From: Chloroflexota bacterium
Lineage (GTDB): Bacteria > Chloroflexota > Limnocylindria > Limnocylindrales > CSP1-4
DNA: 64,000 nucleotides
Reading direction: 5' to 3'
Assembly: GCA_034435355.1 (NCBI GenBank)
Contig: DAOTXE010000024.1
Coordinates: 7,017 to 71,016 of the forward strand
In this document: positions 20,350 to 60,836 of the stretch, in pieces
Layout of the letters: the number at the start of each line of letters is the position of its first letter
Position numbering within the stretch: position 1 is the first letter of the stretch
Notes under the pieces: generated by a model
Database searches by the model: none
Seen by the model: only the letters and a program-made list of their open reading frames with translations
What the model was told of the DNA's origin: nothing
Made by a program: the position numbers and the translations under genes

Positions 20350-20356
20350 GGGAGGC

Positions 20357-22618: not shown

Positions 22619-22620
22619 CC

Positions 22621-23220: not shown

Positions 23221-23233
23221 GGTGGAGCGTGTC

Positions 23234-23752
23234 ATGCGCGTGGCGATCTACCCGGGTTCGTTCGATCCCATCACGATGGGCCACGTGGACGTGCTGTGTC
23301 GCGCGCTGGGTGTCTTCGACCGGGTCGTCGTCGCCGTCCTCCTCAACCCGAAGAAGCTCCCGATGCTCGACATCGACGCGCGGGTCGCGGCGATCAGGTC
23401 CGGCGTCGGCGAGGTGCTCCCCGGCCTCGCCGACCGCGTCGACGTTCGCCCCTTCGCCGGCCTGACGGTCGATGCCTGCCGTCAGACGGACGCGCGCTTC
23501 ATCGTGCGCGGGCTGCGTGCCGTGAGCGATTTCGAGGCGGAGCTCCAGATGGCCCACATGAACCACCGTCTTGCCCCGGAGATCGACACGGTCTTCTTCA
23601 TGACCGCGCTCGAATACAGCTACCTGTCGTCGAGCCTGGTGCGGGAGATCGTGCGCTTCGGCGGCGACCCGACGGGGATGGTCCCGCCATCGGTGGCGGA
23701 CCGGCTGTCTGCCGCGGCGGCGGCCGAGGGCGCGCCCGGCCGCGTGCGATAA
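23234..23752 (+). CDS. coaD: Phosphopantetheine adenylyltransferase
   Basis: MRVAIYPGSFDPITMGHVDV, RGLRAVSDFE.E, SSS.VREI. Confidence 0.94.
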   Translation: MRVAIYPGSFDPITMGHVDVLCRALGVFDRVVVAVLLNPKKLPMLDIDARVAAIRSGVGEVLPGLADRVDVRPFAGLTVDACRQTDARFIVRGLRAVSDFEAELQMAHMNHRLAPEIDTVFFMTALEYSYLSSSLVREIVRFGGDPTGMVPPSVADRLSAAAAAEGAPGRVR

Positions 23753-23753
23753 T
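23748..23753 (+). promoter_or_regulatory. Possible extended -10 element TGcGATAAT over the coaD stop
   Basis: TGCGATAAT at 23745-23753, 58 nt upstream of ATG 23811. Confidence 0.3.
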
Positions 23754-23810
23754 CCGCCCCATACCGGGCGGCCTCGACGCCCGCGCGCGGAGGGCGATCC
23801 CATCGACATC

Positions 23811-24329
23811 ATGTTCTTCGTCGAGCGGCTCGAGGCGATGATCGCCAACGGGCGGAAGCTCCCCCTGACGTCGAACGTCGTCGTCGACCAGGCGGCTGCG
23901 CTCGACCTCGTGGACGAGCTCCGCCACGCCGTGCCGGAGGAGGTCCAGTCGGCTCGCCGGATCAATGCCGAGGGCGAGCGAATCCTCGAGCGAGCGCAGC
24001 AGGAATCCGAGCGGATCATCGCCAAGGCACAGGAGCAGGCGGCGTTCCTGATCGACGAGCGTGGCCTGACCGAAGCGGCGGAGGCGGAGGGTCGGCGGAT
24101 CGTCGAGGACGCCCTTGCCGAGGCGGCCGACGTCCGGCGTGGCTCGGACGAGTACGCGGCGGACGTCCTGGTGCACCTCGAGGGCGAGATCGTCAAGGCG
24201 CTCCAGAGCATCCGCCGGGGGATCGAGATGCTCGACGAGCGCCGCGTCCCGGCCGATGATCCGACCAGGGGCGAGCTCGACGACGAAGACTCGGATGGCG
24301 CAGCCAGGGACCCCGGTTCCGGCAGGTGA
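23811..24329 (+). CDS. Hypothetical coiled-coil protein (ATP-synthase-b/DivIVA-like heptads), conserved position between coaD and yceD
   Basis: 172 aa; a long Glu/Ala/Arg helical stretch (AEGERILERAQQESERIIAKAQEQAAFLIDERGLTEAAEAEGRRIVEDALAEA). No catalytic motif recognised. Confidence 0.6.
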   Translation: MFFVERLEAMIANGRKLPLTSNVVVDQAAALDLVDELRHAVPEEVQSARRINAEGERILERAQQESERIIAKAQEQAAFLIDERGLTEAAEAEGRRIVEDALAEAADVRRGSDEYAADVLVHLEGEIVKALQSIRRGIEMLDERRVPADDPTRGELDDEDSDGAARDPGSGR

Positions 24330-24883
24330 GCGCGGCGCCGGACGAGCAGCCGCTCCTCTACAACGTCTCGGGGCTCCTCGGCGAGGCGCCGGGATCGGTA
24401 CGTGACATCGCGTTCGCAGCCGTTACGCTGGACCTGGGGGAGGACCTCGTCCTCGCGGAGCCGGTCGCCGGCTCCGCGCACCTGGCGCGGACGAATCGCG
24501 GGCTCCTGGTGACCGGCCATGTCGCCGCCGTGCTTGCAGACACCTGCGGGCGCTGCCTGGTCCCCGTTCGCATTCCGCTCGCGCTCGACTTCGACGAGGA
24601 GTTCCTGCCGAGCGTCGACCTCGGGTCCGGTCAGCCGCTCGACAGGGCCGTTGAGCCCGAGGTCCCACGCCTCACCGATCACCACGAGGTCGACCTGGAG
24701 ACGCCCGTCCGGGAGGCGATCCAGCTCGCGGCGCCGATCGTCCCGCTCTGCCGCCCCGACTGCCTGGGCCTGTGCCCGCTGTGCGGCGCCGACCGGAACC
24801 TCGGCCCGCACGTCCACGCCGACACCGGCGGCGACCCCCGCCTCGAGGCGTTGCGCGACTTCCACCCGGACGCGGAAGGCTGA
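24326..24883 (+). CDS. yceD: YceD/DUF177 family ribosome-maturation protein
   Basis: CGRCL.P, acidic middle, C..DC.GLCP.CG..N Cys pairs; lies immediately upstream of rpmF as in yceD-rpmF-plsX. Confidence 0.88.
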   Translation: MSAAPDEQPLLYNVSGLLGEAPGSVRDIAFAAVTLDLGEDLVLAEPVAGSAHLARTNRGLLVTGHVAAVLADTCGRCLVPVRIPLALDFDEEFLPSVDLGSGQPLDRAVEPEVPRLTDHHEVDLETPVREAIQLAAPIVPLCRPDCLGLCPLCGADRNLGPHVHADTGGDPRLEALRDFHPDAEG

Positions 24884-27458: not shown

Positions 27459-28223
27459 TTGCCGGGAGACGATCCGCTCGCTTCGCACGCCTCGGCGGCG
27501 CTCTCCGCCCGCCTCGGACTCGCCTTCGATGACCAGTCCCTGCTCGAACGCGCCCTGGTGCATGGCAGCTGGCTGCACGAACACCCGGGCGGGGCCCCGG
27601 GGCACAACGAGCGTCTGGAGTTCCTCGGCGATTCGGTGATCAGCCTGGTCGTCTCGGAGGCGCTCCATGCCCGCCACCCGCAGGACGACGAGGGCGTCCT
27701 GTCTGCGCGCCGCGCGGCGATCGTGAGCGCAAACGGGCTCGCCCGCCTGGCGCGGCGCATCGACCTGGGCGACGCGATCCTCCTCGGCGAGGGCGAATCC
27801 CAGCGCGGTGGCCGGGCCCGGGAGGCCCTGCTCGCGTCCTCCTTCGAGGCGCTGGCCGGCGCGATCTTCCTCGACGGCGGATGGGACGCGGCGCGCTCGT
27901 GGCTCCGCGCCCTCGCCGGACCGGAGCTCGAAGCGAATTCCCCTGTCGGCACCCTCAAGAGCCCGAAGAGCCGCCTCCAGGAGCTGACCCAGCGGTCGGG
28001 CTCGCGCCCGGCTTACCACGTCGTCCAGTCCTCCGGACCGGACCACGCGCGGGAGTTCGTCGTGGAGGTCTCCGTCGACGGGGACGTCATCGGGACCGGC
28101 ACGGGCAGCTCGCTCCGGCTGGCGCAGACGGCCGCGGCCCAGGCGGGCCTGGCGGCGCTCGGAAGGAGGCCTGGTGTCAACGCGGAGGCGAACGGAGGCC
28201 AGCGGGGGAGCCGCCACGTATGA
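27459..28223 (+). CDS. rnc: Ribonuclease III
   Basis: NERLEFLGDSVISLVVSEAL signature, SFEALAGAIFLDGG, C-terminal dsRBD (KS.LQE......P.Y.......GPDH...F.V.V). Confidence 0.94.
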   Translation: MPGDDPLASHASAALSARLGLAFDDQSLLERALVHGSWLHEHPGGAPGHNERLEFLGDSVISLVVSEALHARHPQDDEGVLSARRAAIVSANGLARLARRIDLGDAILLGEGESQRGGRAREALLASSFEALAGAIFLDGGWDAARSWLRALAGPELEANSPVGTLKSPKSRLQELTQRSGSRPAYHVVQSSGPDHAREFVVEVSVDGDVIGTGTGSSLRLAQTAAAQAGLAALGRRPGVNAEANGGQRGSRHV

Positions 28224-31200
28224 GCGCGCGGGCACGCCTTGTCGCGCTCCGTCTGCAGGGCTTCAAGTCGTTTGCCGAACGGACGGTGGTTGAGTTCGCG
28301 CCGGGGATCAACGCGGTCGTCGGCCCGAACGGCTCCGGCAAGAGCAACCTCGCGGATGCCCTCCGCTGGACGCTTGGCGAACAGGGCCGCGCAATCCGGT
28401 CGCGGCGTTCGGAGGACGTGGTGTTCGCGGGGTCCGAACGGCGCCCCGCGCTCGGGATGGCGGACGTCTCGCTCCTCCTCGACAACGCAGACGGGCTCGT
28501 CCCGGTCGACTTCTCGCAGCTCGAGCTGGGGCGGCGCCTGTACCGGTCGGGCGAGAACGACTACCTGGTCAACCGGCAGCGCGTCCGCCTGCGCGACCTG
28601 GTGGACCTGCTGGATGCCGCGCACCTCGCGGAGAACGCGTTCCTCTTCATCGGGCAGGGCATGGTCGATCAGGCGCTGGCCCTGCGGCCCGAGGAGCGGC
28701 GACCACTGTTCGAGGAGGTGGCCGGGGTTCGGCGCCACGAACGCCGGCGCCGCAGAGCCGAGGAGCAGCTGGAGGAGGCGACCGGGAACCTGGCCCGCGT
28801 GGAGGATGTCCTGGGCGAGCTGCGCCCGCAGGCACGCCGCCTGGCCGCCCAGGCCGAGCAGCAGGCGACCCGCGCCCGGGCGGGCGAGGAGCTGGCGGCC
28901 GCCCTGGTCGCCCGGATCGGCACCCGCTGGCACGGGGCCACGAAGGAGCACCGCCACACGGAGCGCGAGCTGGCCGACGCCAGGCAGGCCGCCGCGCTCG
29001 CCCTCGATGCGCTGCAGGTAGCCGAGAAGGGCGCAGCCGACGCGGCACGGGACCTCTCGGCGCGCGCGGACGCAGAGCGGGAGGCGCGCGATGCGCACGA
29101 GGCGGCCCGGGCCGCGCTCGCCGTCCTTCAGCTCGACGCCGCGCGGGCATCGGCCGAGGCAGCCGGGATCATCCGTGACAGCGATCGGCTCGCAGCGGAG
29201 CGCGCGGCGGCCGAAGCGGAGCTCGCGGCACGGCGGCGCGAGCTCGCCCTCCCGATGCCCGGGCCCGAGCCTGCGCTCGACGACGAGATCGCCGAACTCG
29301 AGCGTGCGCTCGCCGAGGCCCGCAGCGAGGCGCGGGCGCTGCTGACCGAGACGGCGGCTCGCTCGGAAGCCGAGGCTGCCGTCCGGCGCGCCGGACTGGC
29401 CCGGGTCGCGGAGGCGGAGGGGCTCGAGCGCCGCCTGGCCGATGTCGAGCGCCGCCATGCCGAGGAGCGGGCCGCGGCCGAGAAGGCAGCCAGGCGGGCC
29501 GCGGAGCTCGAGGGGGCAGCGGCAACCGCGCGGGCCGTGACGGATGCGGCCCGGGAGGCCGAGATTGCCGCCCAGGCGGCGCGCGATGCTGCCCAGGCGC
29601 ATGCTGCGACTGCCGACGCCGAGCGGCGTGCCGCCGCCGAGGCCGCCGAGGTGGCCGGATCCCGCGCGGCGACCCTCCGCGGGCGGCTCGAGGCGCTCCT
29701 GGACCGGCTCGCGGAGGACGAGACGCGGGGCATCGGCCGGGCGGCCCGCCGGCTCGGTGGCCGAGCCCTCGCAGCCGGCCTCGACGTCGATCCCGCTCTG
29801 CGGGTCGGGGTCTCGGGCGCGCTCGGCGAGCTGGCACGGGCGTTCGTGCTCCGCCGTGAGCGGGTGGGCGGCCTCACGGACGAGCGCGGCGTTGTCGTGA
29901 TCGACGACAGCGCGGGTCCCGGCGCCCGCCCGCCTGCCGCGACCGAGGCGGCCGCGGTCCGTGCCCTCGCCGGGGGGTTCGGGGGCGGTCTCCTGGCGGA
30001 CGCGGTCCGCGTGGATCCTGCGGCGGCCGCCTCCCGGCTCCTCGCCCGGTGCGCGTGGGTGCCCGCTCTCGCGGATGCGCTCGAGGTCGGGGCCCGGCTT
30101 CCCGCCGGGTGGAGCGTTGCGACGCGCACGGGTGCGGTTGTCAGCGCGGCCGGCGCCGTCAGCCTCGGGATCGTGGATGCACCGCTGGAGCGTCGCGCGG
30201 AGGCGGAGGCAGTCCGGCGTGACCTCGCTGCGGCCGAGGCGGAGCGCGATGCGTCCGCCGGTCGGCTGGCCCGCGCCGCCGGCGTGGCCGACGCTGCCGG
30301 GGCAGCCCAGGAGGCGGCGCGTCGCACGGAAGGCGAAACGGCGGCGCATCGCCGCGCGGCCGAGGAGGACGAACGCCGCGCCGCTCGCGGCGCGGAGCAG
30401 ACGGCGCGTGAAGCGGGCTGGCACGCATCGCGCGCCGTGGCGGTGGCCGCCGAGCGCGACGCCCTGGCAGACCGGCTCGCCTCCCTGGAGCGCAGCGCGC
30501 CGGGCACGGCAGATGTCGCGCCGACCGGAGGGCACGACGCGCAGGCCACGCCCGGCGCAGCCGCGACGGCTGACGCGGCGACCTCGCCGGAGGGAGCCGG
30601 CGCGCTGGCCGCCTGGGATGCGCGCGCAGCCGACCTGCAGACCAGGCGCGATCGTCTCGCTGCCGATCGAGCCGGGCGCGAGGCTCGGCGGCGCGCCGCC
30701 GAGGATCGGCGGGCGCGTGCCGACGCGGCGGCCACGGGTGCCGAGGAGCGGGTCGCCCGGGCGGACGCCGAGGCGTCGGCGCTGGCGCGGCGCGAGGAAG
30801 CGCTGGCAGCGCAGCGCATCGCCCGCGAGCGCGAGCTGGCCGAGGCGACCGTGCGCGAGGGGAGCGCCCGGGCGGTGCTCGAACGGTGCCTCGCCGCCGA
30901 CACTGCTGACCGTGAACGGCTTCGGCGCGCCGAGTCGTCCGTCGGTGGAGCGCGCGAGTCGCTCCGGCGTGCCGACGAGATCGTGCGGGAGGGGACGGTG
31001 GGCGAGCTCGAGGCGCGGCTCGGGATCGATGCGGTGCGGGAGCAGGCCCTGGTCGAGTTCGCGGGCCTCGGCGACGCCGGAGTCGACGCGCTCGAGGCCG
31101 TCGCTGCCGATGCTCCCGGGGGCACCCGGCCGACGACGCTCGCCGCGCCGGCGGAGACGGAGCCGGATGCCGACGATGGGGCGCGGCTGGCGGCGGCCCT

Positions 31201-31966
31201 TGCCCGAGCCGGCGAGCGGTGGGGGGCGCATGCTCCGGCCGACGAGGGCCCGCCGGCGGGTCGGCTCGCCGGTCTGCGGCGACGCTTCCACGAGCTCGGC
31301 GCATCGAACCCGTTTGCGGCGGAGGAGTACGCGACGGTTCGCGCGAGGCTCGAGGAGCTCGAGGCGCAGCGCCGGGATCTCGACCGCGCGATCGAGCGGA
31401 CTCGCGGGCTCATCACCGAGCTCGACAGCCTCATCGCGGGTCAGTTCAGGGCAACCTTCCGTGCGCTCGAAGCGGCCTTCGACCGCCGCTTCGGGCAGCT
31501 CTTTGGCGGCGGCTTCGCGCGGCTCAGCCTGACGGACCCCACCGATCTCGCGGCCACGGGCGTCGAGATCGTGGCGCGCCCACCCGGCAAGAAGGCCCAG
31601 TCGCTCTCGATGCTGTCGGGCGGTGAGCGCGCCCTGACGGCAGTCGCCCTCCTGTTCGCCATGCTGGAGGTCCGGCCGGTCCCGTTCTGCGTCCTCGACG
31701 AGGTGGACGCGGCACTCGACGAGGCGAACGTGGGCCGGTTCGTGGAGGCGCTCCGGGGTCTCGCGGCGACGACCCAGTTCGTGGTGATCACGCACAATCG
31801 CGGGACGATCGAGGCGGCGGACGCCCTGTTCGGCGTCACGGTCGGCGACGACGCGGTGAGCCGCGTGATCAGTCTCCGCCTCGACGAGGCGACGGCGATC
31901 GCCGAGCGCGTGACGGGCGACGGTTCGAGCGCGCGTACGACCACGGCCCCGGCGACGGCCAACTGA
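28220..31966 (+). CDS. smc: Chromosome partition protein Smc
   Basis: ATG 28220 (ATGA overlap with rnc stop). LQGFKSF, Walker A GPNGSGKSN, long Ala/Glu/Arg coiled coils with a central hinge, LSGGERALTAVALLFA, Walker B FCVLDEVDAALD, ITHN. Confidence 0.94.
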   Translation: MSARARLVALRLQGFKSFAERTVVEFAPGINAVVGPNGSGKSNLADALRWTLGEQGRAIRSRRSEDVVFAGSERRPALGMADVSLLLDNADGLVPVDFSQLELGRRLYRSGENDYLVNRQRVRLRDLVDLLDAAHLAENAFLFIGQGMVDQALALRPEERRPLFEEVAGVRRHERRRRRAEEQLEEATGNLARVEDVLGELRPQARRLAAQAEQQATRARAGEELAAALVARIGTRWHGATKEHRHTERELADARQAAALALDALQVAEKGAADAARDLSARADAEREARDAHEAARAALAVLQLDAARASAEAAGIIRDSDRLAAERAAAEAELAARRRELALPMPGPEPALDDEIAELERALAEARSEARALLTETAARSEAEAAVRRAGLARVAEAEGLERRLADVERRHAEERAAAEKAARRAAELEGAAATARAVTDAAREAEIAAQAARDAAQAHAATADAERRAAAEAAEVAGSRAATLRGRLEALLDRLAEDETRGIGRAARRLGGRALAAGLDVDPALRVGVSGALGELARAFVLRRERVGGLTDERGVVVIDDSAGPGARPPAATEAAAVRALAGGFGGGLLADAVRVDPAAAASRLLARCAWVPALADALEVGARLPAGWSVATRTGAVVSAAGAVSLGIVDAPLERRAEAEAVRRDLAAAEAERDASAGRLARAAGVADAAGAAQEAARRTEGETAAHRRAAEEDERRAARGAEQTAREAGWHASRAVAVAAERDALADRLASLERSAPGTADVAPTGGHDAQATPGAAATADAATSPEGAGALAAWDARAADLQTRRDRLAADRAGREARRRAAEDRRARADAAATGAEERVARADAEASALARREEALAAQRIARERELAEATVREGSARAVLERCLAADTADRERLRRAESSVGGARESLRRADEIVREGTVGELEARLGIDAVREQALVEFAGLGDAGVDALEAVAADAPGGTRPTTLAAPAETEPDADDGARLAAALARAGERWGAHAPADEGPPAGRLAGLRRRFHELGASNPFAAEEYATVRARLEELEAQRRDLDRAIERTRGLITELDSLIAGQFRATFRALEAAFDRRFGQLFGGGFARLSLTDPTDLAATGVEIVARPPGKKAQSLSMLSGGERALTAVALLFAMLEVRPVPFCVLDEVDAALDEANVGRFVEALRGLAATTQFVVITHNRGTIEAADALFGVTVGDDAVSRVISLRLDEATAIAERVTGDGSSARTTTAPATAN

Positions 31967-31982
31967 AGGAGCGCGGGCACCG

Positions 31983-33035
31983 ATGTTCTGGCGACGGCGG
32001 CCAACCGACCCCGACGGACCCGGGGTCGAACGCGCGCCCACGGAGGCCGGTCCCGGTGACGAACCCGACAGCGGCGACGCGCCCGGAGAGGGCGCCGCGC
32101 CATCCGCCGATGCCGCGACGGCGGACGCGCCGGGCGCGGGCCCGGACCCGACCCTGGGCCACGCGATGGAACGGAGCCGGAGCGGCTTCGTGGCGCGTCT
32201 CAAGGGACTCCTGGGCCGGGGCGACGCGGATGCCGCGACCTGGGAGGAGGTCGAGGAGACCCTGATCGCCGGCGATGTGGGAGCGACACTCGCCCTCGAG
32301 GTGGTCGAGCGGGCGCGCCGCCGTCGCGACGGCTCGGGCCCGATGGAGGCCGTGCGGGCAGAGCTGACGGCGCTGCTCGTCGACCGCGACGCCGACTGGG
32401 CACCGCGGCGGTCGGCCCCCGACGCCCCTGCGATCGTCCTCGTCGTGGGCGTCAACGGGACGGGCAAGACAACCACGATCGGGAAGCTCGCGTCCCGCTA
32501 TCGCGCCGAGGGGCAGACCGTCCTGCTCGCCGCGGGCGACACGTTTCGGGCCGCCGCCATCGAGCAGCTGCGGACCTGGGGCGACCGGTCCGGCGCGGCA
32601 GTGGTGGCGCACGCGCCCGGTGCCGATCCATCGGCGGTAATCTTCGACGCCATGGACGCGGCCGTCGCGCGGCGCGTGGACGTCCTGATCGCCGACACCG
32701 CGGGACGGCTGCACACGAAGGCGAACCTCATGGACGAGCTGGCGAAGATGCGCCGGGTGATCGATCGGCGGCTTCCCGGTTCGCAGCCCGAGGTCCTGTT
32801 CGTCCTCGACGCCACGACCGGGCAGAACGGCCTTGCGCAGGCGAAGGCGTTCCACGAATCGACCGGCCTGACCGGGATCATCCTCACGAAGCTCGACTCG
32901 ACGGCCAAGGGCGGCATCGTGTTCGCGATCGAACGGAGCCTCGGGGTGCCGGTTCGCTTCGTCGGGGTGGGGGAGAAGGTCGGTGACCTCGTCCGTTTCG
33001 AGCCGGCCGACTTCGTGAGCGCGCTCTTCGGCTGA
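31983..33035 (+). CDS. ftsY: Signal recognition particle receptor FtsY
   Basis: Acidic N-terminus; NG domain GVNGTGKTTTIGKLA, DTFRAAA, ADTAGRLH, TKLD.TAKGG. Confidence 0.94.
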   Translation: MFWRRRPTDPDGPGVERAPTEAGPGDEPDSGDAPGEGAAPSADAATADAPGAGPDPTLGHAMERSRSGFVARLKGLLGRGDADAATWEEVEETLIAGDVGATLALEVVERARRRRDGSGPMEAVRAELTALLVDRDADWAPRRSAPDAPAIVLVVGVNGTGKTTTIGKLASRYRAEGQTVLLAAGDTFRAAAIEQLRTWGDRSGAAVVAHAPGADPSAVIFDAMDAAVARRVDVLIADTAGRLHTKANLMDELAKMRRVIDRRLPGSQPEVLFVLDATTGQNGLAQAKAFHESTGLTGIILTKLDSTAKGGIVFAIERSLGVPVRFVGVGEKVGDLVRFEPADFVSALFG

Positions 33036-36542: not shown

Positions 36543-36776
36543 ATGGCCGCCCCGCAGCTCATCGAGTTCGTGGCCAAGTCGCTCGTCGATCACCCGGACC
36601 AGGTGGAGGTCGTCGTCAGCCAGGAGGGCGGCGCGACCATCATCGAGCTCCGCGTGGCCGAGGACGACATGGGCAAGGTGATCGGCCGGAACGGGAGCGT
36701 CGCCAAGGCGCTTCGGACGCTCCTCAAGGTCGTCGGTGCCCGTGACGGCGAGCAGGTCCAGCTGGAGATCGTCTGA
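36543..36776 (+). CDS. KH domain RNA-binding protein (YlqC/UPF0109 family)
   Basis: 77 aa; LVDHPDQVEV......ATIIELRVAEDDMGKVIGRNGSVAKALRTLL with GxxG KH motif; conserved between rpsP and rimM. Confidence 0.9.
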   Translation: MAAPQLIEFVAKSLVDHPDQVEVVVSQEGGATIIELRVAEDDMGKVIGRNGSVAKALRTLLKVVGARDGEQVQLEIV

Positions 36777-36823
36777 TCCCGGGCACTCCCTCCCCGGACG
36801 CGTCGCGACTCGTCGTCGCGCTC

Positions 36824-37492
36824 GTGCGGGGCTTTCACGGCGTGAACGGCGGCCTCCGGGTCGAGGTCCTCACCGACGATCCGGCCGCCCGGTTCGCGCC
36901 CGGTGCCCAGCTCCACGCGGAGGGCACGGCCGAGCCGTTGACCGTCGTCGAGGCATGGGCCGCGGCGCCCGGCTGGATCGTGCGGTTCCGCGAGATCCCC
37001 TCGCGCAGCGCGGCTGCCGCGTACCTCTCGACCTATCTCGAGGTCGACGCTGCCCGCGTGGACGCCCTGCCGCGAGGGCGCTACTACTGGCACGAGCTCA
37101 TCGGCTGTCCGGTCGTCGACCCGGAGGGCGAGGCGCTCGGCATCGTGCGCGACATGTACCGATCCGGCGGCGCGGAGATTCTCGTCGTCGAGGGTGGCCC
37201 GCGCGGCGCGTTCGACCTCCCGGTCGCGCGACCGTTCGTGCGGATCCTGGCGCCTCGCCGCGGCGAGATCGTCGCCGACCCGGACGCCCTCGACCTCCCA
37301 TCCGCGGACGCGATCCGTCCCGCGCGGCCCCCGCGCCCTCCCCGTCCCCGCAAGGGCGAGCAGTCGCCGAGCCGCCCGCGCCCGTCCACCGAGGATCTGC
37401 CTCCCGACGATGCCGCGCCTGGCGCGGGCGTGCCGGACACCTCCGGCAGCGACCCGGGAAGCCCGGCCCCTCCCGAGCCGGCAACGGGCTAG
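36824..37492 (+). CDS. rimM: Ribosome maturation factor RimM with Pro-rich C-terminal tail
   Basis: GFHGVNGGLRVEVLTDDP, PRGRYYWHELIGC.V, PRC-barrel region. GTG 36824 is the first canonical start, but RimM-like residues (SRLVVALV) continue upstream in frame. Confidence 0.85.
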   Translation: MRGFHGVNGGLRVEVLTDDPAARFAPGAQLHAEGTAEPLTVVEAWAAAPGWIVRFREIPSRSAAAAYLSTYLEVDAARVDALPRGRYYWHELIGCPVVDPEGEALGIVRDMYRSGGAEILVVEGGPRGAFDLPVARPFVRILAPRRGEIVADPDALDLPSADAIRPARPPRPPRPRKGEQSPSRPRPSTEDLPPDDAAPGAGVPDTSGSDPGSPAPPEPATG

Positions 37493-37504
37493 GGGTCCGC
37501 TCGC

Positions 37505-38290
37505 GTGCCGCTCGAGATCGACATCCTCAGCCTGTTCCCGGAGATGCTCGCGGGCCCGCTCGCGGCCAGCATCCCCGCCCGCATCCAGGATTCGGGGCTG
37601 GCCTCGATCCGGGTCCACGACCTCCGGGCCTGGGGCCTCGGGCGGCACCGGAGCGTGGACGACGCCCCCTACGGCGGCGGGGCAGGGATGGTGCTGCGAC
37701 CGGAGCCCGTAGCGGGGGCGCTGGCGGCCCTGCGTCGGCCGGAGTCCACCGTCATCCTGTTCGACGCAGCGGGTGAGTCGTTCCGGCATGCGCGCGCCGC
37801 CGATCTCGCGACCCGACCGCACCTGGTGCTCGTCTGCCCGCGCTACGAAGGCGTCGACGAGCGCATCCGCGCCATGGCCGACCTGGAGCTGTCGATCGGC
37901 GACTTCGTCCTGACGGGCGGGGAGCTCCCGGCGCTGGTCGTCTGCGACGCCGTGCTGCGGCTCCTTCCCGGTGCGATCGAGGCCGGCTCGCTGACCGACG
38001 AGTCGTTCACGCAGGGGCTCCTCGAGTACCCCCAGTACACCCGGCCGGCGGTGTTCGAAGGGCGTGGCGTGCCGTCCGTCCTCACCTCCGGCGATCATGA
38101 AGCGGTGCGCCGATGGCGTCTCCGCGAGTCGCTGCGGCGCACGCTCGAGCGACGCCCGGACCTGCTCGAGGGCCGCCAGCTGAGGGCGGAAGAAGGGGCG
38201 CTGCTCGAGGAGATCGCCGAGGAACGGGCCGCCGATGACGAGGGGGCCGGGTCCGTCGGGTCCCCGGCCACCCCGAGCGGGCTGCCGTGA
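37505..38290 (+). CDS. trmD: tRNA (guanine37-N1)-methyltransferase TrmD
   Basis: IDILSLFPEM, DDAPYGGGAGMVL, CPRYEGVDERI, SIGDFVLTGGELPA, LEYPQYTRP, GDH..V..WR. Confidence 0.95.
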   Translation: MPLEIDILSLFPEMLAGPLAASIPARIQDSGLASIRVHDLRAWGLGRHRSVDDAPYGGGAGMVLRPEPVAGALAALRRPESTVILFDAAGESFRHARAADLATRPHLVLVCPRYEGVDERIRAMADLELSIGDFVLTGGELPALVVCDAVLRLLPGAIEAGSLTDESFTQGLLEYPQYTRPAVFEGRGVPSVLTSGDHEAVRRWRLRESLRRTLERRPDLLEGRQLRAEEGALLEEIAEERAADDEGAGSVGSPATPSGLP

Positions 38291-38306
38291 ACAGGCTGCC
38301 GTGAAC
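38280..38306 (+). repeat. Tandem direct repeat GGCTGCCGTGAAC x2 (period 14) spanning the trmD stop codon
   Basis: Identical 13-mers at 38280-38292 and 38294-38306. The second copy lies 16 nt upstream of the rplS -10 element. Confidence 0.8.
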
Positions 38307-38322
38307 GCGTGTTGACGCGTGC

Positions 38323-38328
38323 TATACT
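38323..38328 (+). promoter_or_regulatory. Putative extended -10 element TGcTATACT upstream of rplS
   Basis: TGCTATACTCCGC in the trmD-rplS spacer, 95 nt before GTG 38424. Confidence 0.45.
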
Positions 38329-38423
38329 CCGCCGTCGGTCGCCCGTCCGCGACCGATCCATCGTGCCCAGGAACGCGGCTCGCGGGACCGTCCCGGCCGC
38401 CCAGTGCAGCAGGGGTCGACCCG

Positions 38424-38771
38424 GTGAACGTACTCGACGAGATCGTCAAGGACCAGATTCGAACCGACATCCCGGCCCTCGCGCCCGGCGACACCGTGAA
38501 GGTCAGCGCCAAGGTCGTCGAGGGCAACCGGGAGCGCGTCCAGGTCTTCGAGGGCACCATCCTGCGCCTGACGGGCGGTGGGATCACGCGTTCGCTGACC
38601 GTGCGACGGATCGCCTCGGGCGTGGGCGTCGAGCGGACGTTCAAGGTCAACAGCCCGCGGATCGAGAAGATCGAGGTCGTCCGGCACGGCGTGGCGCGGC
38701 GCGCGAAGCTCTACTTCCTGCGCCGGCGGGTCGGCAAGGCGGCGACGCTCCGGGAACGGCGCACGAGCTGA
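38424..38771 (+). CDS. rplS: 50S ribosomal protein L19
   Basis: GTG 38424: [43 protein letters not shown].....GGI..S.TVRRI..GVGVER.F...SP.I..IEV; 115 aa, the usual L19 size. Confidence 0.93.
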
Positions 38772-54854: not shown

Positions 54855-55874
54855 ATGCCGATCGACCTCGGGCTCGCCGCGGCGATCGTTCCCGACGACG
54901 TGGTGGAGCGCCTGCGCGGCGCGCAGCGGGTGCTCGCGATCGGCCACGAGAGCCCGGACGCGGATGCGCTGGGGGCGGCGCTCGCCATCGGCATGCTCGT
55001 GGAGTTCCTCGGGGGCCAGGCGACCGTTGCCGCCGCGGACGCCGTGCCGGACCTGTACCGGTTCCTCGACCCCAGCAACGCGGTCCGGACGGACCCGGAG
55101 CCGGACGCGACGTACGACCTCGTCGTCCTGTGCGACTGCGGCGATCTCTCCAGGGTCGGGGCGATCCGGGACCGCAATGCGGCGCTCTTCGCCGCGACGC
55201 CGCTTCTCACCATCGATCACCACGCCAGCAACGACGGTTCGGGCGGGCTCGCCTGGATCGACCCGGACGCGGCAGCGACGTGCGAGATGGTGGCGCTTCT
55301 CGCGGTCCGGCTCGGTGTTCCTCTCGGGGCGGGGGACGGAAGGCTGGCAGCGGCCCTGGCCGCCGGCATCGTGATGGACACGGCCACCTTTGCCCATCCG
55401 AACACCACACCGCGCACGCTCCTCGTGGCCGCCGCGCTGCTGGAGGCCGGGGCGCCGTTGTCGGAGGTCAGCCGGCTGCTCTACCGGACGAAGCCGGCCG
55501 CGCAGCTTGCGCTGTTCGCGAGGGTTCTCGGGCGCCTGGAATCCCACGCCGACGGCCTCGTGATCGTCTCGACGATGGAGATCGCGGACCTGGTCGCCAC
55601 CGGCGCGCGCTCGGAGCACTCCGAGGGGATCATCGACCTGCTCGCCCAGTCCGAGACGGCCGAGGTCGCGCTCCTCCTCAAAGAGCGGGACGGTGCGACC
55701 CGTCTGTCCGTGCGCACGAAGCCCGGGGGGGTGGACGCCACGGCGCTGTGCGGGACGTGGGGCGGCGGGGGACATCCACGTGCCGCCGGTGCGTCACTCC
55801 CGCTTCCCCTGGCAGATGCGGTCGCGGCCGTCCTCCCGGAGGCGGTCCGCCACGCCCGGGCGGTCGCGCGGTGA
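54855..55874 (+). CDS. nrnA: DHH/DHHA1 family phosphoesterase (NrnA-type oligoribonuclease / pAp phosphatase)
   Basis: H.SPDADALGA, DCGD, IDHH, D....F.....T, GGGH..AAG. Confidence 0.85.
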   Translation: MPIDLGLAAAIVPDDVVERLRGAQRVLAIGHESPDADALGAALAIGMLVEFLGGQATVAAADAVPDLYRFLDPSNAVRTDPEPDATYDLVVLCDCGDLSRVGAIRDRNAALFAATPLLTIDHHASNDGSGGLAWIDPDAAATCEMVALLAVRLGVPLGAGDGRLAAALAAGIVMDTATFAHPNTTPRTLLVAAALLEAGAPLSEVSRLLYRTKPAAQLALFARVLGRLESHADGLVIVSTMEIADLVATGARSEHSEGIIDLLAQSETAEVALLLKERDGATRLSVRTKPGGVDATALCGTWGGGGHPRAAGASLPLPLADAVAAVLPEAVRHARAVAR

Positions 55875-56899
55875 GCGACGAGCGTGCCGTCGCGGACGAC
55901 GGCGGCGGCGTGCGACGCCCGGTGCGTCGCGTGGATGCGGCGCTCGACGGGATCCTCGTGGTGGACAAGCCGATCGGCCCGACGTCCCACGACGTCGTCG
56001 CTATCGTCCGGCGCCTGGCGGGCACGAAGCGGATCGGTCACGGCGGGACGCTCGACCCATTCGCCTCGGGCGTGCTCCCGCTCTACCTCGGCCGCGCGAC
56101 GCGCGTCGTGGAGTTCCACCTGGGCGCGCGGAAGGCGTACCGGGCGACCGTCTGCTTCGGGGCAACCTCCACGACGGACGACCTCGAAGGCGAGCTGACG
56201 CCGTTCGAGGGCCCGGCGCCGACGAGGGCAGCCGTCGAGGCGGCCCTGGCGGGCTTCCTGGGGACGCACCGGCAGCAGCCACCGATCTTCTCGGCGCGGC
56301 TCGTCGGCGGGAGGCGCGCGTACGTGCTCGCGCGGGCCGGGCACGCAGCGGAGCTGCCGGCTCGAGACGTCACCTTCCACGACCTGTCGCTCGAGGGTTG
56401 GGACGAGACGGACCCGGAATGCCCGGTGGCGTCTGTCGCGGTGGCCTGCTCCGCCGGAACGTACATCCGCGCCCTGGCGCGCGACCTTGGGATGGCCGTC
56501 GGCAGTGCCGCCTACCTGGGCGCGCTGCGTCGGATTGCGGCGGGCCCGTTCACGCTCGACGACGCGATCGGCCTCGACCAGGCCAGGGAAGCGGCCGCAC
56601 AGGGCCGGTTCGCGGCGCTCCTCCGGCCGGTCGGCACCGGCCTCGACGACCTTCGCGCGGTGACGCTGCGCCCCGACGAGATCGTCGTGATCGCGCACGG
56701 CGGCTGGATCGGCGACGCAGGGCGGCTCCTGACGCGGGCCGGCGCCGATGCCACCCCGGGCGCGGAGGCGTCGGGATCGGAACGCGTCCGGCTCCTGGCG
56801 GAGGACGGCTCGCTCGCGGCGATCGCGCGGCGGGTCGGCGGGCGCCTGGTACCCGACAAGGTGCTCGTTTCGCGCGAGGCGCCGACAGTGAATGGCTGA
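55871..56899 (+). CDS. truB: tRNA pseudouridine(55) synthase
   Basis: GTG 55871 (GTGA overlap). GILVVDKP.GPTSHDVV, KRIGHGGTLDP.ASGVLPL, Y.A...FG..T.T.D.EG, PP.FSA, GTYIRALARD. Confidence 0.92.
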   Translation: MSDERAVADDGGGVRRPVRRVDAALDGILVVDKPIGPTSHDVVAIVRRLAGTKRIGHGGTLDPFASGVLPLYLGRATRVVEFHLGARKAYRATVCFGATSTTDDLEGELTPFEGPAPTRAAVEAALAGFLGTHRQQPPIFSARLVGGRRAYVLARAGHAAELPARDVTFHDLSLEGWDETDPECPVASVAVACSAGTYIRALARDLGMAVGSAAYLGALRRIAAGPFTLDDAIGLDQAREAAAQGRFAALLRPVGTGLDDLRAVTLRPDEIVVIAHGGWIGDAGRLLTRAGADATPGAEASGSERVRLLAEDGSLAAIARRVGGRLVPDKVLVSREAPTVNG

Positions 56900-57758
56900 C
56901 CGACGACCGCTCGCCGGCGTCCCGGAGCGAGGTGCCTTGGGCGAGCTTCCCGCGCTGCACGGGATCGGCGCGCTCCGCCCCGAGCACGGGCCGCTCCTCG
57001 TGGTCGTGGGAGTCTTCGACGGCCTGCATCGCGGGCACGCCTATCTGCTCCGCGAGCTGCGTCGGGCCGCCGCCCGCCTGGGCGCGCGGGCGACCGTGCT
57101 GACCTTCGACCATCATCCGGACGAGATCGTGGCAGGTGCCGCTCCGCCGCTTCTGTGCGACCCCGACGAACGCCTCGTGCGGCTCGCGCGGGCGGGCGTG
57201 GCCGTCACGATCGTCCAGCACTTCGACGAGGCGCTGCGGCAGACGCCCTACGCCGTCTTCGTCGCGTCGATCACCGCGCGGACCCGGCTGGCCGGGTTCC
57301 TCATGACGCCGGATGCGGCCTTCGGCCACGAGCGCCGGGGCACGCCGGCTGCGCTCCGGAACCTCGGCGCGCGCGATGGCTTCGCCGTCGTGGAGGTCCC
57401 GCCATTCGAGATCGAGGGGAAGCAGGTCCGGAGCGCGGAGATCCGGGCGGCCATCGCGACCGGCGACCTCGTCGCTGCCCGGACGCTCCTGGGCCGCCGC
57501 GTCGCGGCAACCGGCCAGGTCGTCGAGCGGTCCCGAGCGGGACGGGAGGCCCTCCTCACCTTCGACGTCCCGGTCGCGCTCCCCCCGGTCGGCGCCTACG
57601 CGGCCACCGCCGAGCCGGCGCTCGCTGCGGCCGGACCGCGTGCGCGGCCTCGTGCGGCCGTCGTGCGGGTCGGAGCCGACGGGACGCTCGGCGTCCGGGC
57701 TCGGGCCGTGACGCTGGCGCCCCGGCGCCTGCGGGTTGCGTTCGTCGCTGCCGAATAG
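56892..57758 (+). CDS. ribF: FAD synthetase (FMN adenylyltransferase) with short, degenerate riboflavin-kinase-like C-terminal domain
   Basis: VGVFDGLHRGHAYLL, LTFD.HP, F......SAE.IR..I..GD...A..LLGR. The C-terminal about 88 aa lack the G.PTAN motif. Confidence 0.82.
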   Translation: MADRRPLAGVPERGALGELPALHGIGALRPEHGPLLVVVGVFDGLHRGHAYLLRELRRAAARLGARATVLTFDHHPDEIVAGAAPPLLCDPDERLVRLARAGVAVTIVQHFDEALRQTPYAVFVASITARTRLAGFLMTPDAAFGHERRGTPAALRNLGARDGFAVVEVPPFEIEGKQVRSAEIRAAIATGDLVAARTLLGRRVAATGQVVERSRAGREALLTFDVPVALPPVGAYAATAEPALAAAGPRARPRAAVVRVGADGTLGVRARAVTLAPRRLRVAFVAAE

Positions 57759-57835: not shown

Positions 57836-57886
57836 CCGCGGGTTTGCTAGAACGGTTGGAACAAATCTTTCGTGTCGGAGGACCGA

Positions 57887-58156
57887 GTGCCGCTCGTGCG
57901 GGAAGCCAAAGATCGGATCGTCGCCGAGTACGCGATCAGTGAAGGGGACACCGGCTCAGCGGAGGTCCAGGTCGCGCTCCTGACGGAGCGGATCAAGGAC
58001 CTCACGGGGCATCTGCGGCTGTTTCCCAAGGACAATCACTCCCGCCGCGGCCTCCTCAAGCTGGTCGGCCAGCGCCGGCGCCTTCTCGCGTATCTCGTGA
58101 AGAAGGACGCTGCGCGCTACCGCGCCGTCATCGCACGGCTCGGACTGCGCCGCTGA
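57887..58156 (+). CDS. rpsO: 30S ribosomal protein S15
   Basis: [20 protein letters not shown].....D.HSRRGLL.LVG.RR.LL.YL......RY..VI..LGLRR. GTG 57887 has a GGAGGA SD 5 nt upstream and gives the canonical 89 aa; the track start is 57872. Confidence 0.93.
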
Positions 58157-58168
58157 GCACGCGCTGAG

Positions 58169-58187
58169 GCCCGGGGAGCTCCCGGGC
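58169..58187 (+). promoter_or_regulatory. Hairpin in the rpsO-pnp spacer (partial terminator or processing site candidate)
   Basis: GCCCGGG-gagct-CCCGGGC, 7-bp stem, then TTC; 13 nt after the rpsO stop and 70 nt before the pnp GTG. Confidence 0.4.
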
Positions 58188-58256
58188 TTCGGCACCGGAG
58201 GCCGGCGCGAGCGCTGGCAGCGGTCCATCCCCGACGCGAGCGAGAAAGGAACGCTC

Positions 58257-60836
58257 GTGTCACTCACCTTCTCCGTCGAGTTCGGCGGACGCCAACTCAC
58301 CCTCGAAACGGGCAAGCTTGCGCGCCTCGCAGGCGGCGCCGTCACGGTCACCTACGGCGACACGGTGGTGCTCGGCACCGCCAACCGGTCCGAGCCCCGC
58401 CCGGGCCTGGACTTCTTCCCGCTCACGGTGGACTTCGAGGAGCGGATGTACGCCGCGGGCAAGATCCCGGGCGGCTTCATCAAGCGCGAATCCCGCCCCT
58501 CCGAGGCCGCAATCCTCGCCGCCCGCCTGACGGACCGGCCGATCCGGCCGCTGTTCCCGGATGGCTACAAGGACGACGTCCAGGTCGTGCTGACCGTCCT
58601 GTCCACCGACCAGGAGAACAACCCGGACGTCCTCGGGACGATCGCCGCGTCCGCCGCGCTCACCATCAGCGAGATCCCGTTCCTCGGCCCGATCGGTGCG
58701 CTTCGCATCGGCCGGATCGGCGGCGAGTTCGTGATCAACCCCACGATGCCCGAGCTCGCCGAGTCCGACCTCGACCTGATCGTCTCGGGAACGCGCGAGG
58801 CGATCATGATGGTCGAGGCCGGCGCGAGGATTCTCCCCGAGGCCGTGATGGCCGAGGCGATCCTGTTCGGTCACCGCGCCCTGCAGCCGCTCATCGACCT
58901 CCAGCTCCAGCTCCAGGAGGCGGTCGGCAAGACCAAGCGCATCCCGTTCCTGGATGCCGGCACCGGCTCGGTTCTCGACTTCGCCGCGAAGGCGAAGGCG
59001 GGCGCGGAGTTCGTCGTGCTGGACGTGGAGACGACCGGCACCAACCCGGAGATGGCGGACCTCGTCGAGATCGCCGTCGTGCGCGTCGCGGGTGGCGCGG
59101 TGGTGGACCGCTGGTCGACCCTCGTGAACCCGGGCCGGGCCATCTTCGGCAACCAGATGCACGGCATCACGACCGCCGACGTCGCCGGGGCGCCGAGCCC
59201 CCTCGAGGCCGCGAAGCAGGCGCTCGCCTTCATCGGCGGGGCGACCCTCGTCGGCCACTCGGTCGGCTTCGACATCGCCTTCCTCGAAGCGGCGCTCGCC
59301 GATGGGACGCGCGTCCGGCCCGGCACCTACATCGACACGCTGACGCTCGCCCGGGACGGCTACCCCGACCTCCCGAGCTACACCCTGGGCGAGCTGTCCC
59401 GCTTCTTCGGGATCGAGCTGAAGCAGGCGCACCGGGCCCTCCCGGACGCGGAGGCCACGGCAGCCCTGCTCCTGGCGATCGGCGCAGACCTGCCGGAGCG
59501 CCTCGGGGCCCTCTCGGCCGCGATCGCCGACTCCATCCGGACTGCCCGGACGTCCAAGGACGAGGCAAAGGCGAAGCTCGAGGCGGCCCGCCGAGCCGCC
59601 CGGGTCTCGAAGTCCCTCTTCGGCCTCGTGCACAAGAAGACCGCCCGCGCGCTGACCCTCTCCGAGGGGATCCGCATGGACGGACGCGGTGTCGACGAGC
59701 TGCGGACGATCACGGTCGAGGTCGGCGTCCTGCCGCGCGCGCATGGCTCCGGCCTCTTCACGCGGGGCGAGACGCAGGCTCTCACGATCGCCACCCTCGG
59801 CCCCTCCTCCGACGTCCAGCGGATCGACACGATCAGCCCGGAGACCGAGAAGCGCTACATCCACCACTACAACATGCCGCCCTACAGCACCGGCGAGAAC
59901 AAGATGATGCGGGGCCCCGGACGGCGCGAGATCGGCCACGGCCACCTCGCGGAGCGGGCGCTCCTGCCCGTGCTCCCCAGCCCGGACGAGTTCCCCTATG
60001 TCATCCGCCTCGTCTCGGAGTGCGTCACCTCGAACGGCTCCACCTCGATGGCGTCCACCTGTGGATCCACCCTGGCCCTCATGGACGCCGGCGTGCCGAT
60101 CACGGCTCCGGTCGCCGGCGCCGCCATGGGCCTCATGTCCGAGGCGGACGGGACGTTCACCGTCCTGACCGACATCCTCGGCAAGGAGGATTCCTTCGGC
60201 GACATGGACTTCAAGGTCACCGGGACCCGGGACGGGATCACGGCGCTCCAGATGGACATCAAGGTGACCGGGATCAGCGAGGCGATCATTCGGCAGGGGC
60301 TCGAGAAGGCCCACGCCGCGCGGATGACGATCCTCGACAAGATGCTCGAGGTCCTGCCGTCCGCGCGTGACACGATGAGCGACTTCGCCCCGCGCATCAC
60401 GAAGATCAAGATCAACCCCGAGAAGATCCGCGACATCATCGGCAAGGGCGGCTCCATGATCCGCAAGATCCAGGAGGAGACCGGGACCGAGATCAACGTC
60501 GAGGATGACGGGACCGTGGAGATCGCCGCCGTGTCCGGCGAGAACGCCCGCAAGGCGATCCACTGGATCGAGTCGCTCACCCGCGAAGTCGAGATCGGGG
60601 CCCTCTACCTGGGGACCGTGACCCGCCTCATGACCTTCGGCGCCTTCGTGGAGATCCTGCCGGGCAAGGAAGGCCTCGTCCGGATCGGCGAGCTGGCCGA
60701 TTACCACGTCCCGTCCGTCGAGGACGTCGTGTCGGTGGGCGACGAGGTCATGGTGGTCGTCACCGAGGTCGACCGCCAGGGCCGGGTGAACCTGTCCCGG
60801 AAGGCGGCCATGCAGCGCCACCTCGCCAAGGGCTGA
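58257..60836 (+). CDS. pnp: Polynucleotide phosphorylase with inserted DEDDh (DnaQ/RNase T-like) exonuclease domain
   Basis: GTG 58257 with GAAAGGA SD; 859 aa. PH1 (FFPLTVDFEERMYAAGKIPGGF.KRE.RPS), PH2 (IRMDGRG.DE.R......G.LPR.HGS.LFTRGETQ, NGSTSMASTCGSTLALMDAGVPI, DILG.ED..GDMDFKV.GT), KH (GKGGSMIRKI), S1 (G.V.R...FGAFVE..PGKEGLV.I.EL). The extra aa ~250-412 read FVVLDVETTG ... GHSVGFDIAFL ... HRALPDAEATA. Confidence 0.93.
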   Translation: MSLTFSVEFGGRQLTLETGKLARLAGGAVTVTYGDTVVLGTANRSEPRPGLDFFPLTVDFEERMYAAGKIPGGFIKRESRPSEAAILAARLTDRPIRPLFPDGYKDDVQVVLTVLSTDQENNPDVLGTIAASAALTISEIPFLGPIGALRIGRIGGEFVINPTMPELAESDLDLIVSGTREAIMMVEAGARILPEAVMAEAILFGHRALQPLIDLQLQLQEAVGKTKRIPFLDAGTGSVLDFAAKAKAGAEFVVLDVETTGTNPEMADLVEIAVVRVAGGAVVDRWSTLVNPGRAIFGNQMHGITTADVAGAPSPLEAAKQALAFIGGATLVGHSVGFDIAFLEAALADGTRVRPGTYIDTLTLARDGYPDLPSYTLGELSRFFGIELKQAHRALPDAEATAALLLAIGADLPERLGALSAAIADSIRTARTSKDEAKAKLEAARRAARVSKSLFGLVHKKTARALTLSEGIRMDGRGVDELRTITVEVGVLPRAHGSGLFTRGETQALTIATLGPSSDVQRIDTISPETEKRYIHHYNMPPYSTGENKMMRGPGRREIGHGHLAERALLPVLPSPDEFPYVIRLVSECVTSNGSTSMASTCGSTLALMDAGVPITAPVAGAAMGLMSEADGTFTVLTDILGKEDSFGDMDFKVTGTRDGITALQMDIKVTGISEAIIRQGLEKAHAARMTILDKMLEVLPSARDTMSDFAPRITKIKINPEKIRDIIGKGGSMIRKIQEETGTEINVEDDGTVEIAAVSGENARKAIHWIESLTREVEIGALYLGTVTRLMTFGAFVEILPGKEGLVRIGELADYHVPSVEDVVSVGDEVMVVVTEVDRQGRVNLSRKAAMQRHLAKG

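Follow-up and report, generated by a model that had tools for sequence, protein, structure and literature searches.

The 64,000-nucleotide stretch of DNA analysed here (hereafter the window; contig DAOTXE010000024.1 of a Chloroflexota bacterium) carries the gene of a polynucleotide phosphorylase (PNPase) in which a complete DEDDh-type 3′–5′ exonuclease domain is inserted between the two RNase PH cores. The gene, pnp (58257..60836, + strand), encodes a protein of 859 amino acids (aa) and is the housekeeping PNPase gene of a Candidatus Limnocylindria bacterium. PNPase is among the most conserved and best-studied enzymes of RNA decay, and the domain order PH-alpha-PH-KH-S1 is regarded as practically unchanging. 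The architecture described here is established as a lineage-wide, selectively maintained domain insertion in this very conserved enzyme. As proposed in an earlier note on this DNA, made from the sequence alone, one polypeptide is predicted to combine a phosphorolytic with a hydrolytic 3′–5′ exonucleolytic centre; this prediction draws on domain hidden Markov models (HMMs), on sequence and fold matches in the Protein Data Bank (PDB) and on conserved sites.

Domain architecture of the PNPase and its insert

The pnp open reading frame (ORF) begins with a GTG start codon, and its product of 859 aa compares with 705–784 aa for the solved PNPases in the PDB. A profile search of the translation returned the domains that the earlier note had expected: RNase_PH and RNase_PH_C, each twice, KH_1 (matched at aa 715–772) and S1 (matched at aa 778–849), which together form the complete PNPase domain set in Pfam, and in addition PF00929. 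The whole protein scored 935.6 bits with the PNPase equivalog model TIGR03591 (cutoff 525.05) and 927.8 bits with NF008805 (cutoff 471). The match to TIGR03591 was divided into two stretches, the second of which placed aa 428–850 on profile positions 266–688. Alignments to solved PNPases, with about 40–55% identity in the cores, likewise covered aa 4–224 and resumed from about aa 409–459. For the structure 8zaw, residue 409 corresponded to chain residue 273 and residues 225–408 stood opposite chain residues 239–272, so that about 34 canonical residues are replaced by 184.

The first RNase PH core (aa 1–224; 58257..58928, +), consisting of RNase_PH and RNase_PH_C, aligned with solved PNPases up to residue 223 or 224. 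The second core (aa 471–705; 59667..60371, +), delimited by Pfam, contains the phosphorolytic site with the motifs GRREIGHG, NGSTSMAS (aa 593–600) and GDMDFKV (aa 648–654), whose residues we take to be the counterparts of D486, D492 and K494 of the E. coli enzyme. It is followed by a KH domain (aa 713–772; 60393..60572, +; PF00013, E = 1.2e-12) with the GKGG motif at aa 729–732 and by an S1 domain (aa 778–850; 60588..60806, +; PF00575, E = 6.9e-18). The phosphorolytic, KH and S1 motifs had been judged intact by eye, and NGSTSMAS, GDMDFKV and GKGG were indeed found present and conserved. Canonical bacterial PNPases (TIGR03591; E. coli 3GCM and 3CDI, S. aureus 5YJJ, C. crescentus 4AM3) show the same two PH cores, all-alpha linker, KH and S1 domains, phosphorolytic motifs and rpsO-pnp locus. 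They differ at the insertion site, where the canonical enzyme has about 34 residues, whereas the Limnocylindria PNPase has about 150 extra residues which form a complete DEDDh domain. Neither sequence nor Foldseek searches of the PDB revealed a solved PNPase with an inserted DEDDh domain.

The inserted domain (aa 253–405; 59013..59471, +) matched the RNase_T family PF00929 over the full length of the profile (positions 1–164 of 164; E = 2.9e-26, 93.4 bits against a gathering cutoff of 24). It lies within the surplus block at 59004–59492 (aa 250–412) which had first drawn attention to this ORF and which is thereby confirmed. Situated between the two cores, the insert interrupts the otherwise retained all-alpha linker domain close to the N-terminal edge of the latter. 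Its first catalytic motif is contained in FVVLDVETTG (aa 252–261), from which D256 and E258 follow as the Exo I residues; the numbering D255/E257 given earlier was off by one, while D339 (Exo II) and H392-x4-D397 (Exo III) had been placed correctly. The corresponding codons, all on the + strand, are located at 59022–59024 (D256), 59028–59030 (E258), 59271–59273 (D339), 59430–59432 (H392) and 59445–59447 (D397). In the PDB sequence search, these motifs aligned with the catalytic motifs of PolC and DinG.

Searches with the insert by sequence and, together with its flanking helices, by Foldseek returned DEDDh exonucleases of PolC, DinG and epsilon. With aa 245–418, the NCBIfam matches were the DEDD exonuclease model NF005906 (152 bits), the DinG N-terminal exonuclease, the PolC exonuclease and the epsilon subunit of DNA polymerase III (Pol III), and no RNase T or Orn model was found among the top 25. 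The best PDB sequence match was the Thermotoga PolC exonuclease 2p1j (8e-22), followed by PolC 9qpc, S. aureus DinG 8zef and the DnaQ domain 8h18, and then by Cas2-DEDDh, E. coli epsilon and ExoX. RNase T was matched only partially (E = 3.6e-5), and Orn did not match the insert in this search. DinG models were hit through their exonuclease part only (118 bits against a cutoff of 789) and Pfam detected no helicase domains in the ORF, which is therefore not an exonuclease-helicase of the DinG type. The nearest free-standing relatives of the insert, with 46–50% identity, are found in DinG-type helicases, one of them from Anaerolineae, and in fusions with GIY-YIG/UVR, BRCT and FAN1/VRR-NUC domains. 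Judged by sequence profiles and modelled fold, the insert is a DEDDh domain of the epsilon/PolC/DinG type and not of the RNase T or Orn type. The earlier designation as DnaQ/RNase T-type thus stands for its DnaQ-epsilon, PolC and DinG side and not for RNase T.

This assignment agrees with an AlphaFold2 (AF2) model of aa 225–480, which reached a mean predicted local distance difference test (pLDDT) score of 92.2 and a predicted template modelling (pTM) score of 0.88. A linker with a short helix (aa 225–252, helix 237–247; 58929..59012, +) precedes the insert. The Exo III helix of the insert continues without a break into the helical domain as helix 394–429, and it packs against helices 434–448 and 452–470, which represent the retained part of the PNPase all-alpha domain (aa 406–470; 59472..59666, +; delimited by the AF2 models and by the 8zaw alignment from chain residue 273). 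To judge from the high pTM of the model, exonuclease and helical bundle may be joined in a single rigid unit. Foldseek superimposed the model on epsilon, PolC and the S. thermophilus DnaQ domain with root-mean-square deviations (RMSD) of 2.1–2.6 Å, the lowest for PolC (2.1 Å over 163 columns), and with TM scores of 0.80–0.84 for E. coli epsilon and 0.84 for the S. thermophilus DnaQ domain. The best E-value was obtained with S. aureus DinG (1e-11), and RNase T was more distant (TM about 0.67). The AF2 model of the full-length protein, built from a shallow alignment of low diversity, had an overall pLDDT of 53.6 with poorly modelled PH cores, KH and S1 domains, and Foldseek matched it with low TM to canonical PNPases only. 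We are highly confident that the architecture is real and that its DEDDh domain is catalytically competent, as predicted.

Recurrence, conservation and locus

The unusual length of the ORF could be suspected to reflect a mis-join of pnp with a dnaQ-like gene during assembly, and nothing apart from this length speaks for such a chimera. A scan of one genome per species in GTDB with a query spanning both junctions (aa 201–500) yielded 96 matches, of which 80 loci were retained with 55–96% identity over the whole query. All of these are metagenome-assembled genomes (MAGs) of Chloroflexota, assigned to Candidatus Limnocylindria, Limnocylindrales, Limnocylindrus or "uncultured Chloroflexia", and they stem from soils, peat, permafrost, glacier-fed streams and lakes sampled in short-read as well as long-read projects. 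At 63 loci, the gene is intact in a single frame and encodes 857–864 aa; the others are cut at contig ends or frameshifted in a way typical of long-read assemblies. The closest relative, locus L001, is 97–98% identical to the window. A search with the full-length protein added at least 120 further clusters at 90% identity (857–863 aa), all with PF00929 and PNPase domains, which also answers the survey of homologue architectures suggested earlier. When 1.84 billion cluster representatives were searched exhaustively with HMMER, the junction turned up in the Limnocylindria PNPase family only. The same junctions recur in 80 or more genomes of independent origin, which were obtained in many projects with one or the other sequencing technology, the synteny is conserved, and the GC content is uniform over the insert borders (0.71–0.74 inside, 0.67–0.72 in the flanks). 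Recurrence therefore refutes an assembly chimera, and neither chance nor an artefact can account for E-values this low and for the return of the architecture in dozens of independent assemblies.

Two apparent exceptions were rejected. A separate lineage with a divergent fusion (P0152, P0158, P0137, P0200 and P0131; 38–48% identity) proved to be the same gene in frameshifted form with out-of-frame patches rich in Arg and Pro. A split gene, considered when a first homology search gave no match above 525 aa, was traced to fragments and frameshifted calls, and the full-length query retrieved intact clusters.

Frameshift-broken public copies comprise the loci L001, L002, L034, L045, L051, L054, L060, L067, L069 and L070 and the proteins P0004, P0005, P0014, P0034, P0131, P0137, P0152, P0158 and P0200. 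They occur mostly in long-read 'MFD' MAGs and in some older fen MAGs, their calls are shortened and end in Arg/Pro-rich out-of-frame tails, and some of them serve as representatives of 50% clusters; they look like assembly indel errors rather than pseudogenes. Near-identical copies were also found under the labels Candidatus Acidoferrum, Verrucomicrobiae, Polarisedimenticolia, Deferrimicrobiaceae and Patescibacteria (P0008, P0011, P0039, P0096 and P0315). All copies with labels other than Chloroflexota are third-party annotation (TPA) MAGs on short contigs, and mis-binning rather than horizontal transfer is the likely reason for these labels.

The five catalytic residues D256, E258, D339, H392 and D397, whose presence had been recognised in the window, were invariant in 64 of 64 intact orthologues. 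Within the same 64 proteins, T259 and T260, H302-G303 of the HGIT motif and G337-F338-D339 were invariant as well, and GRREIGHG, NGSTSMAS, GDMDFKV, the equivalent of the FFRR loop and the KH motif GKGG were invariant or nearly so. The proportion of invariant columns amounted to 17.6% in the insert and to 0.08 in the linker leading into it, while the region aa 225–480 kept a length of 254–258 residues across orthologues. Median dN/dS values of 0.19 for the first PH core, 0.14 for the second, 0.145 for KH plus S1, 0.37 for the DEDDh insert and 0.46 for the retained helical domain were obtained by a simple Nei-Gojobori procedure at a third-position GC content (GC3) of about 0.9 and considerable divergence, and thus rank the regions rather than give absolute values. 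Judged by these alignments, the insert is under purifying selection. Since both the DEDDh residues and the phosphorolytic motifs are conserved, both predicted catalytic centres are kept by selection.

The gene rpsO, encoding ribosomal protein S15 (57872..58156, +; PF00312, E = 3.5e-34), lies directly upstream of pnp, and it was found on the same strand upstream of pnp in 78 of the 80 orthologous loci, the median distance between the two genes being 114 nucleotides. The gene order is rseP-ispG-nusA-infB-(rbfA)-DHH/DHHA1-truB-ribF-rpsO-pnp-asd-udg, with ribF conserved in 72, asd in 71 and the DHH gene in 65 of the 80 loci. This conserved rpsO-pnp context identifies the gene as the housekeeping pnp and not a paralogue.

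The DHH/DHHA1 protein (54855–55874, +; 339 aa), encoded between infB/rbfA and truB at 2.4 kb upstream of pnp, had its best NCBIfam match with the oligoribonuclease/pAp phosphatase NrnA (72.6 bits), far under the equivalog cutoff of 350. For the ORF in the position of ribF (56892–57758, +; 288 aa), only the FAD synthetase domain (PF06574, aa 31–182) was detected at E ≤ 1e-5 and Pfam reported no riboflavin kinase domain; its C-terminal part may be divergent or reduced, as far as the domain matches suggest. Other bacteria possess a regulatory leader in the rpsO-pnp intergenic region. A tRNA scan and Rfam at the gathering threshold gave no hit across the 64 kb, including this 100-nucleotide region of the window (58157–58256). 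In E. coli, the pnp leader is processed by RNase III, whose gene rnc was found here at 27459–28223 (+) in an unremarkable plsX-rnc-smc-ftsY-ffh cluster. The remaining window consists of ordinary chromosomal housekeeping genes, among them ileS, priA, recG, plsX, rnc, smc, ftsY, ffh, rpsB and dxr. Very long antisense ORFs run opposite pnp (58260–60821, −; 853 aa) and opposite recG and smc (20336–24865 and 28013–32476, both −; 1509 and 1487 aa). The antisense ORFs 20336–24865 and 36590–38647 had no Pfam match and showed an atypical GC content at the codon positions. The long antisense ORFs are not genes but the usual artefacts of a scarcity of stop codons at a genomic GC content of about 72%.

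Proposed function and its alternatives

The helical domain of PNPase is located on the face of the torus opposite S1 and KH and becomes ordered upon RNA binding (PMC2723993, Nurmohamed et al. 2009). It is part of a pore that leads to the active site besides the central channel and probably governs the traffic of nucleoside diphosphates and phosphate (PMC2723993). On the basis of the conserved motifs, we propose with moderate confidence that the Limnocylindria PNPase is a dual-mode, phosphorolytic and hydrolytic, RNA-directed 3′–5′ exonuclease whose insert finishes or rescues substrates. The KH and S1 domains and the PH ring would bind single-stranded RNA and phosphorolyse it in the manner common to PNPases. 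The three DEDDh modules of a trimer would be held rigidly on the helical-domain face, opposite KH and S1 and beside the side pore to the phosphorolytic site, where they would add a metal-dependent but phosphate-independent hydrolysis of 3′ ends or released oligonucleotides. Such a module could handle substrates that are poor for the phosphorolytic site, for example short oligonucleotide end products or 3′ ends close to secondary structure, and it would stay active under phosphate scarcity, when PNPase tends to polymerise in reverse. Hydrolysis would presumably render RNA decay irreversible where PNPase would otherwise stall or reverse, and the DEDDh domain with its intact active site would have been kept ever since the insertion. 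Partners of the DEDD type acting in trans are known for PNPase: RNase D is associated with it in the Caulobacter degradosome (PMC4245959), and REXO2 acts downstream of PNPase-SUV3 in mitochondria (PMC7261184).

Several observations weigh against this proposal. The closest characterised relatives of the insert, PolC, the epsilon proofreaders, DinG and the DEDDh fusions with GIY-YIG, BRCT and VRR-NUC, act mainly on DNA, and for this reason RNA is not the default substrate. The placement of the insert relative to ring and channel is taken from the literature, the full-length AF2 model being poor for the PH cores. Compared with the cores, the insert evolves at about double the rate. Finally, the NrnA-like DHH/DHHA1 gene near pnp may, as far as its profile match indicates, already provide a separate nanoRNase, which concerns the narrow version of the proposal restricted to oligonucleotide clean-up.

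The first of these points leads to the main rival, according to which the DEDDh module acts on DNA or RNA:DNA hybrids and not on free RNA, in DNA repair or the removal of R-loops. The module might, for example, trim single-stranded DNA (ssDNA) 3′ tails at breaks or degrade the RNA strand of hybrids, with KH/S1 and the ring serving as a single-strand clamp. The best matches in sequence and structure are enzymes of DNA, namely the PolC exonuclease, Pol III epsilon, ssDNA-bound S. aureus DinG and ExoX, and the nearest free-standing relatives reside in GIY-YIG/UVR, DinG helicase, BRCT and FAN1/VRR-NUC proteins, including the DinG-type helicase of Anaerolineae. For the exonuclease of B. subtilis DinG, ssDNA and the RNA strand of hybrids are the preferred substrates, and single-stranded RNA is cut only with Mn2+ (PMC12525004). 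PNPase, for its part, is able to degrade ssDNA and contributes to repair in both B. subtilis and E. coli (PMC2709576, PMC3241651, PMC5379764). However, the host protein is the product of the sole pnp gene detected, at an rpsO-pnp locus within an operon context of translation and RNA processing, and all of its RNA-decay motifs are conserved. Moreover, DEDDh enzymes often discriminate little between the sugars, and relatedness to exonucleases of DNA therefore does not settle which substrate is used. We regard a DNA or hybrid substrate as possible but rather unlikely.

A narrower version of the dual-mode proposal assumes that the insert is the nanoRNase of the cell, i.e. a substitute for Orn which breaks the 2–5-nucleotide end products of PNPase down to mononucleotides. 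Dedicated enzymes are required for the short oligonucleotides left over by processive exoribonucleases, and among these enzymes Orn and REXO2 belong to the DEDDh group (PMC9779919, PMC7261184, PMC6521605), and the helical domain borders the pore to the active site (PMC2723993). On the other hand, the insert is not of the Orn or RNase T type, as judged from the missing Orn match and from the partial and structurally distant match to RNase T described above, and an NrnA-like gene is present in the operon region and conserved in 65 of 80 loci. In view of these findings, we consider an Orn substitute improbable.

The insert might also be catalytically dead or irrelevant and act as a structural or docking module, for instance one on which partners of the degradosome assemble. 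No part of PNPase varies more than the helical domain, and faster evolution of the insert than of the cores would fit such a role. Nevertheless, none of the 64 proteins, which share about 55–96% identity in this region, deviates at the five catalytic residues or in the TT and HGIT motifs, and the insert has retained its full-length HMM match and its fold. Because the active site is invariant, a purely structural role is unlikely, and we assign it a very low probability.

Relation to known systems and significance

The DEDDh exonucleases of DnaQ-epsilon, of PolC proofreading and of the DinG N-terminus (PF00929; 2P1J, 9QPC, 8ZEF, 1J53) have the same three Exo motifs, DEDDh residues and fold as the insert, and they function as a single domain within larger proteins, as would the insert in the Limnocylindria PNPase. 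Their hosts are polymerases, helicases or repair nucleases, whereas the host described here is an enzyme of RNA decay.

The eukaryotic exosome with Rrp6 and Rrp44 offers a conceptual parallel, a PH-type ring with an S1/KH cap coupled to a hydrolytic 3′–5′ exonuclease. Its PH ring is catalytically inert and its nucleases are separate subunits, with Rrp6 being a DEDDy enzyme that is bound non-covalently on the cap side. In contrast, the ring of the Limnocylindria PNPase is predicted to be active, and its nuclease is of the DEDDh type (His392), covalently inserted, and would lie on the face opposite KH and S1 (PMC2723993). The likeness to the exosome noted earlier consequently extends to the concept of a ring with a hydrolytic nuclease and not to Rrp6, as none of the features of an Rrp6-type arrangement (DEDDy, separate subunit, cap side) was found. 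The predicted location is closer to the position of Rrp44 than to that of Rrp6, which we understand as an analogy and not as homology of the assembly. Physical or sequential co-operation of PNPase with DEDD enzymes is likewise realised in trans by PNPase and RNase D in Caulobacter and by PNPase-SUV3 followed by REXO2 in mitochondria (PMC4245959, PMC7261184). There, however, the partners are separate polypeptides of other subfamilies (DEDDy in RNase D, dimeric DEDDh in REXO2/Orn) and not an epsilon/DinG-type domain within a single chain.

One can speculate, tentatively and with low confidence, that the Limnocylindria PNPase is a single-chain convergent counterpart of the exosome ring with its hydrolytic nuclease, in which an RNA 3′ end, after passage through the KH/S1 cap and the central channel, would be partitioned between the phosphorolytic sites and the DEDDh sites on the far face. 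Such an enzyme could switch between a phosphate-dependent, energy-conserving and reversible decay and a phosphate-independent, irreversible one, possibly as an adaptation of oligotrophic soil and freshwater bacteria to phosphate scarcity.

The earlier note had called the architecture undescribed to its knowledge, and, in agreement with this, full-text searches of the literature library used here retrieved no description of a DEDD exonuclease inserted into a PNPase; a classification paper of the RNase H-like superfamily mentions neither PNPase nor RNase PH. The proteins themselves are abundant in databases under generic names. They are called "polyribonucleotide nucleotidyltransferase" or, for fragments, "exonuclease domain-containing protein, partial" at NCBI, and "DNA polymerase III epsilon subunit family exonuclease" at JGI. 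Current annotations thus hide or mislabel the exonuclease insertion.

The finding adds a second, mechanistically different 3′–5′ exonuclease centre to the PNPase plan, kept by the whole class Limnocylindria, whose members are frequent in soils, peat and lakes. Should both sites be active, this enzyme would be the first in which phosphorolytic and hydrolytic exonucleolysis are covalently coupled on a PH ring, and it would offer a natural experiment on the question why exosome-like machines pair rings with hydrolytic nucleases. It would also advance the so far poor understanding of the helical domain of PNPase and its side pore, and it would bear on the RNA turnover of abundant uncultured oligotrophs, possibly under phosphate limitation.

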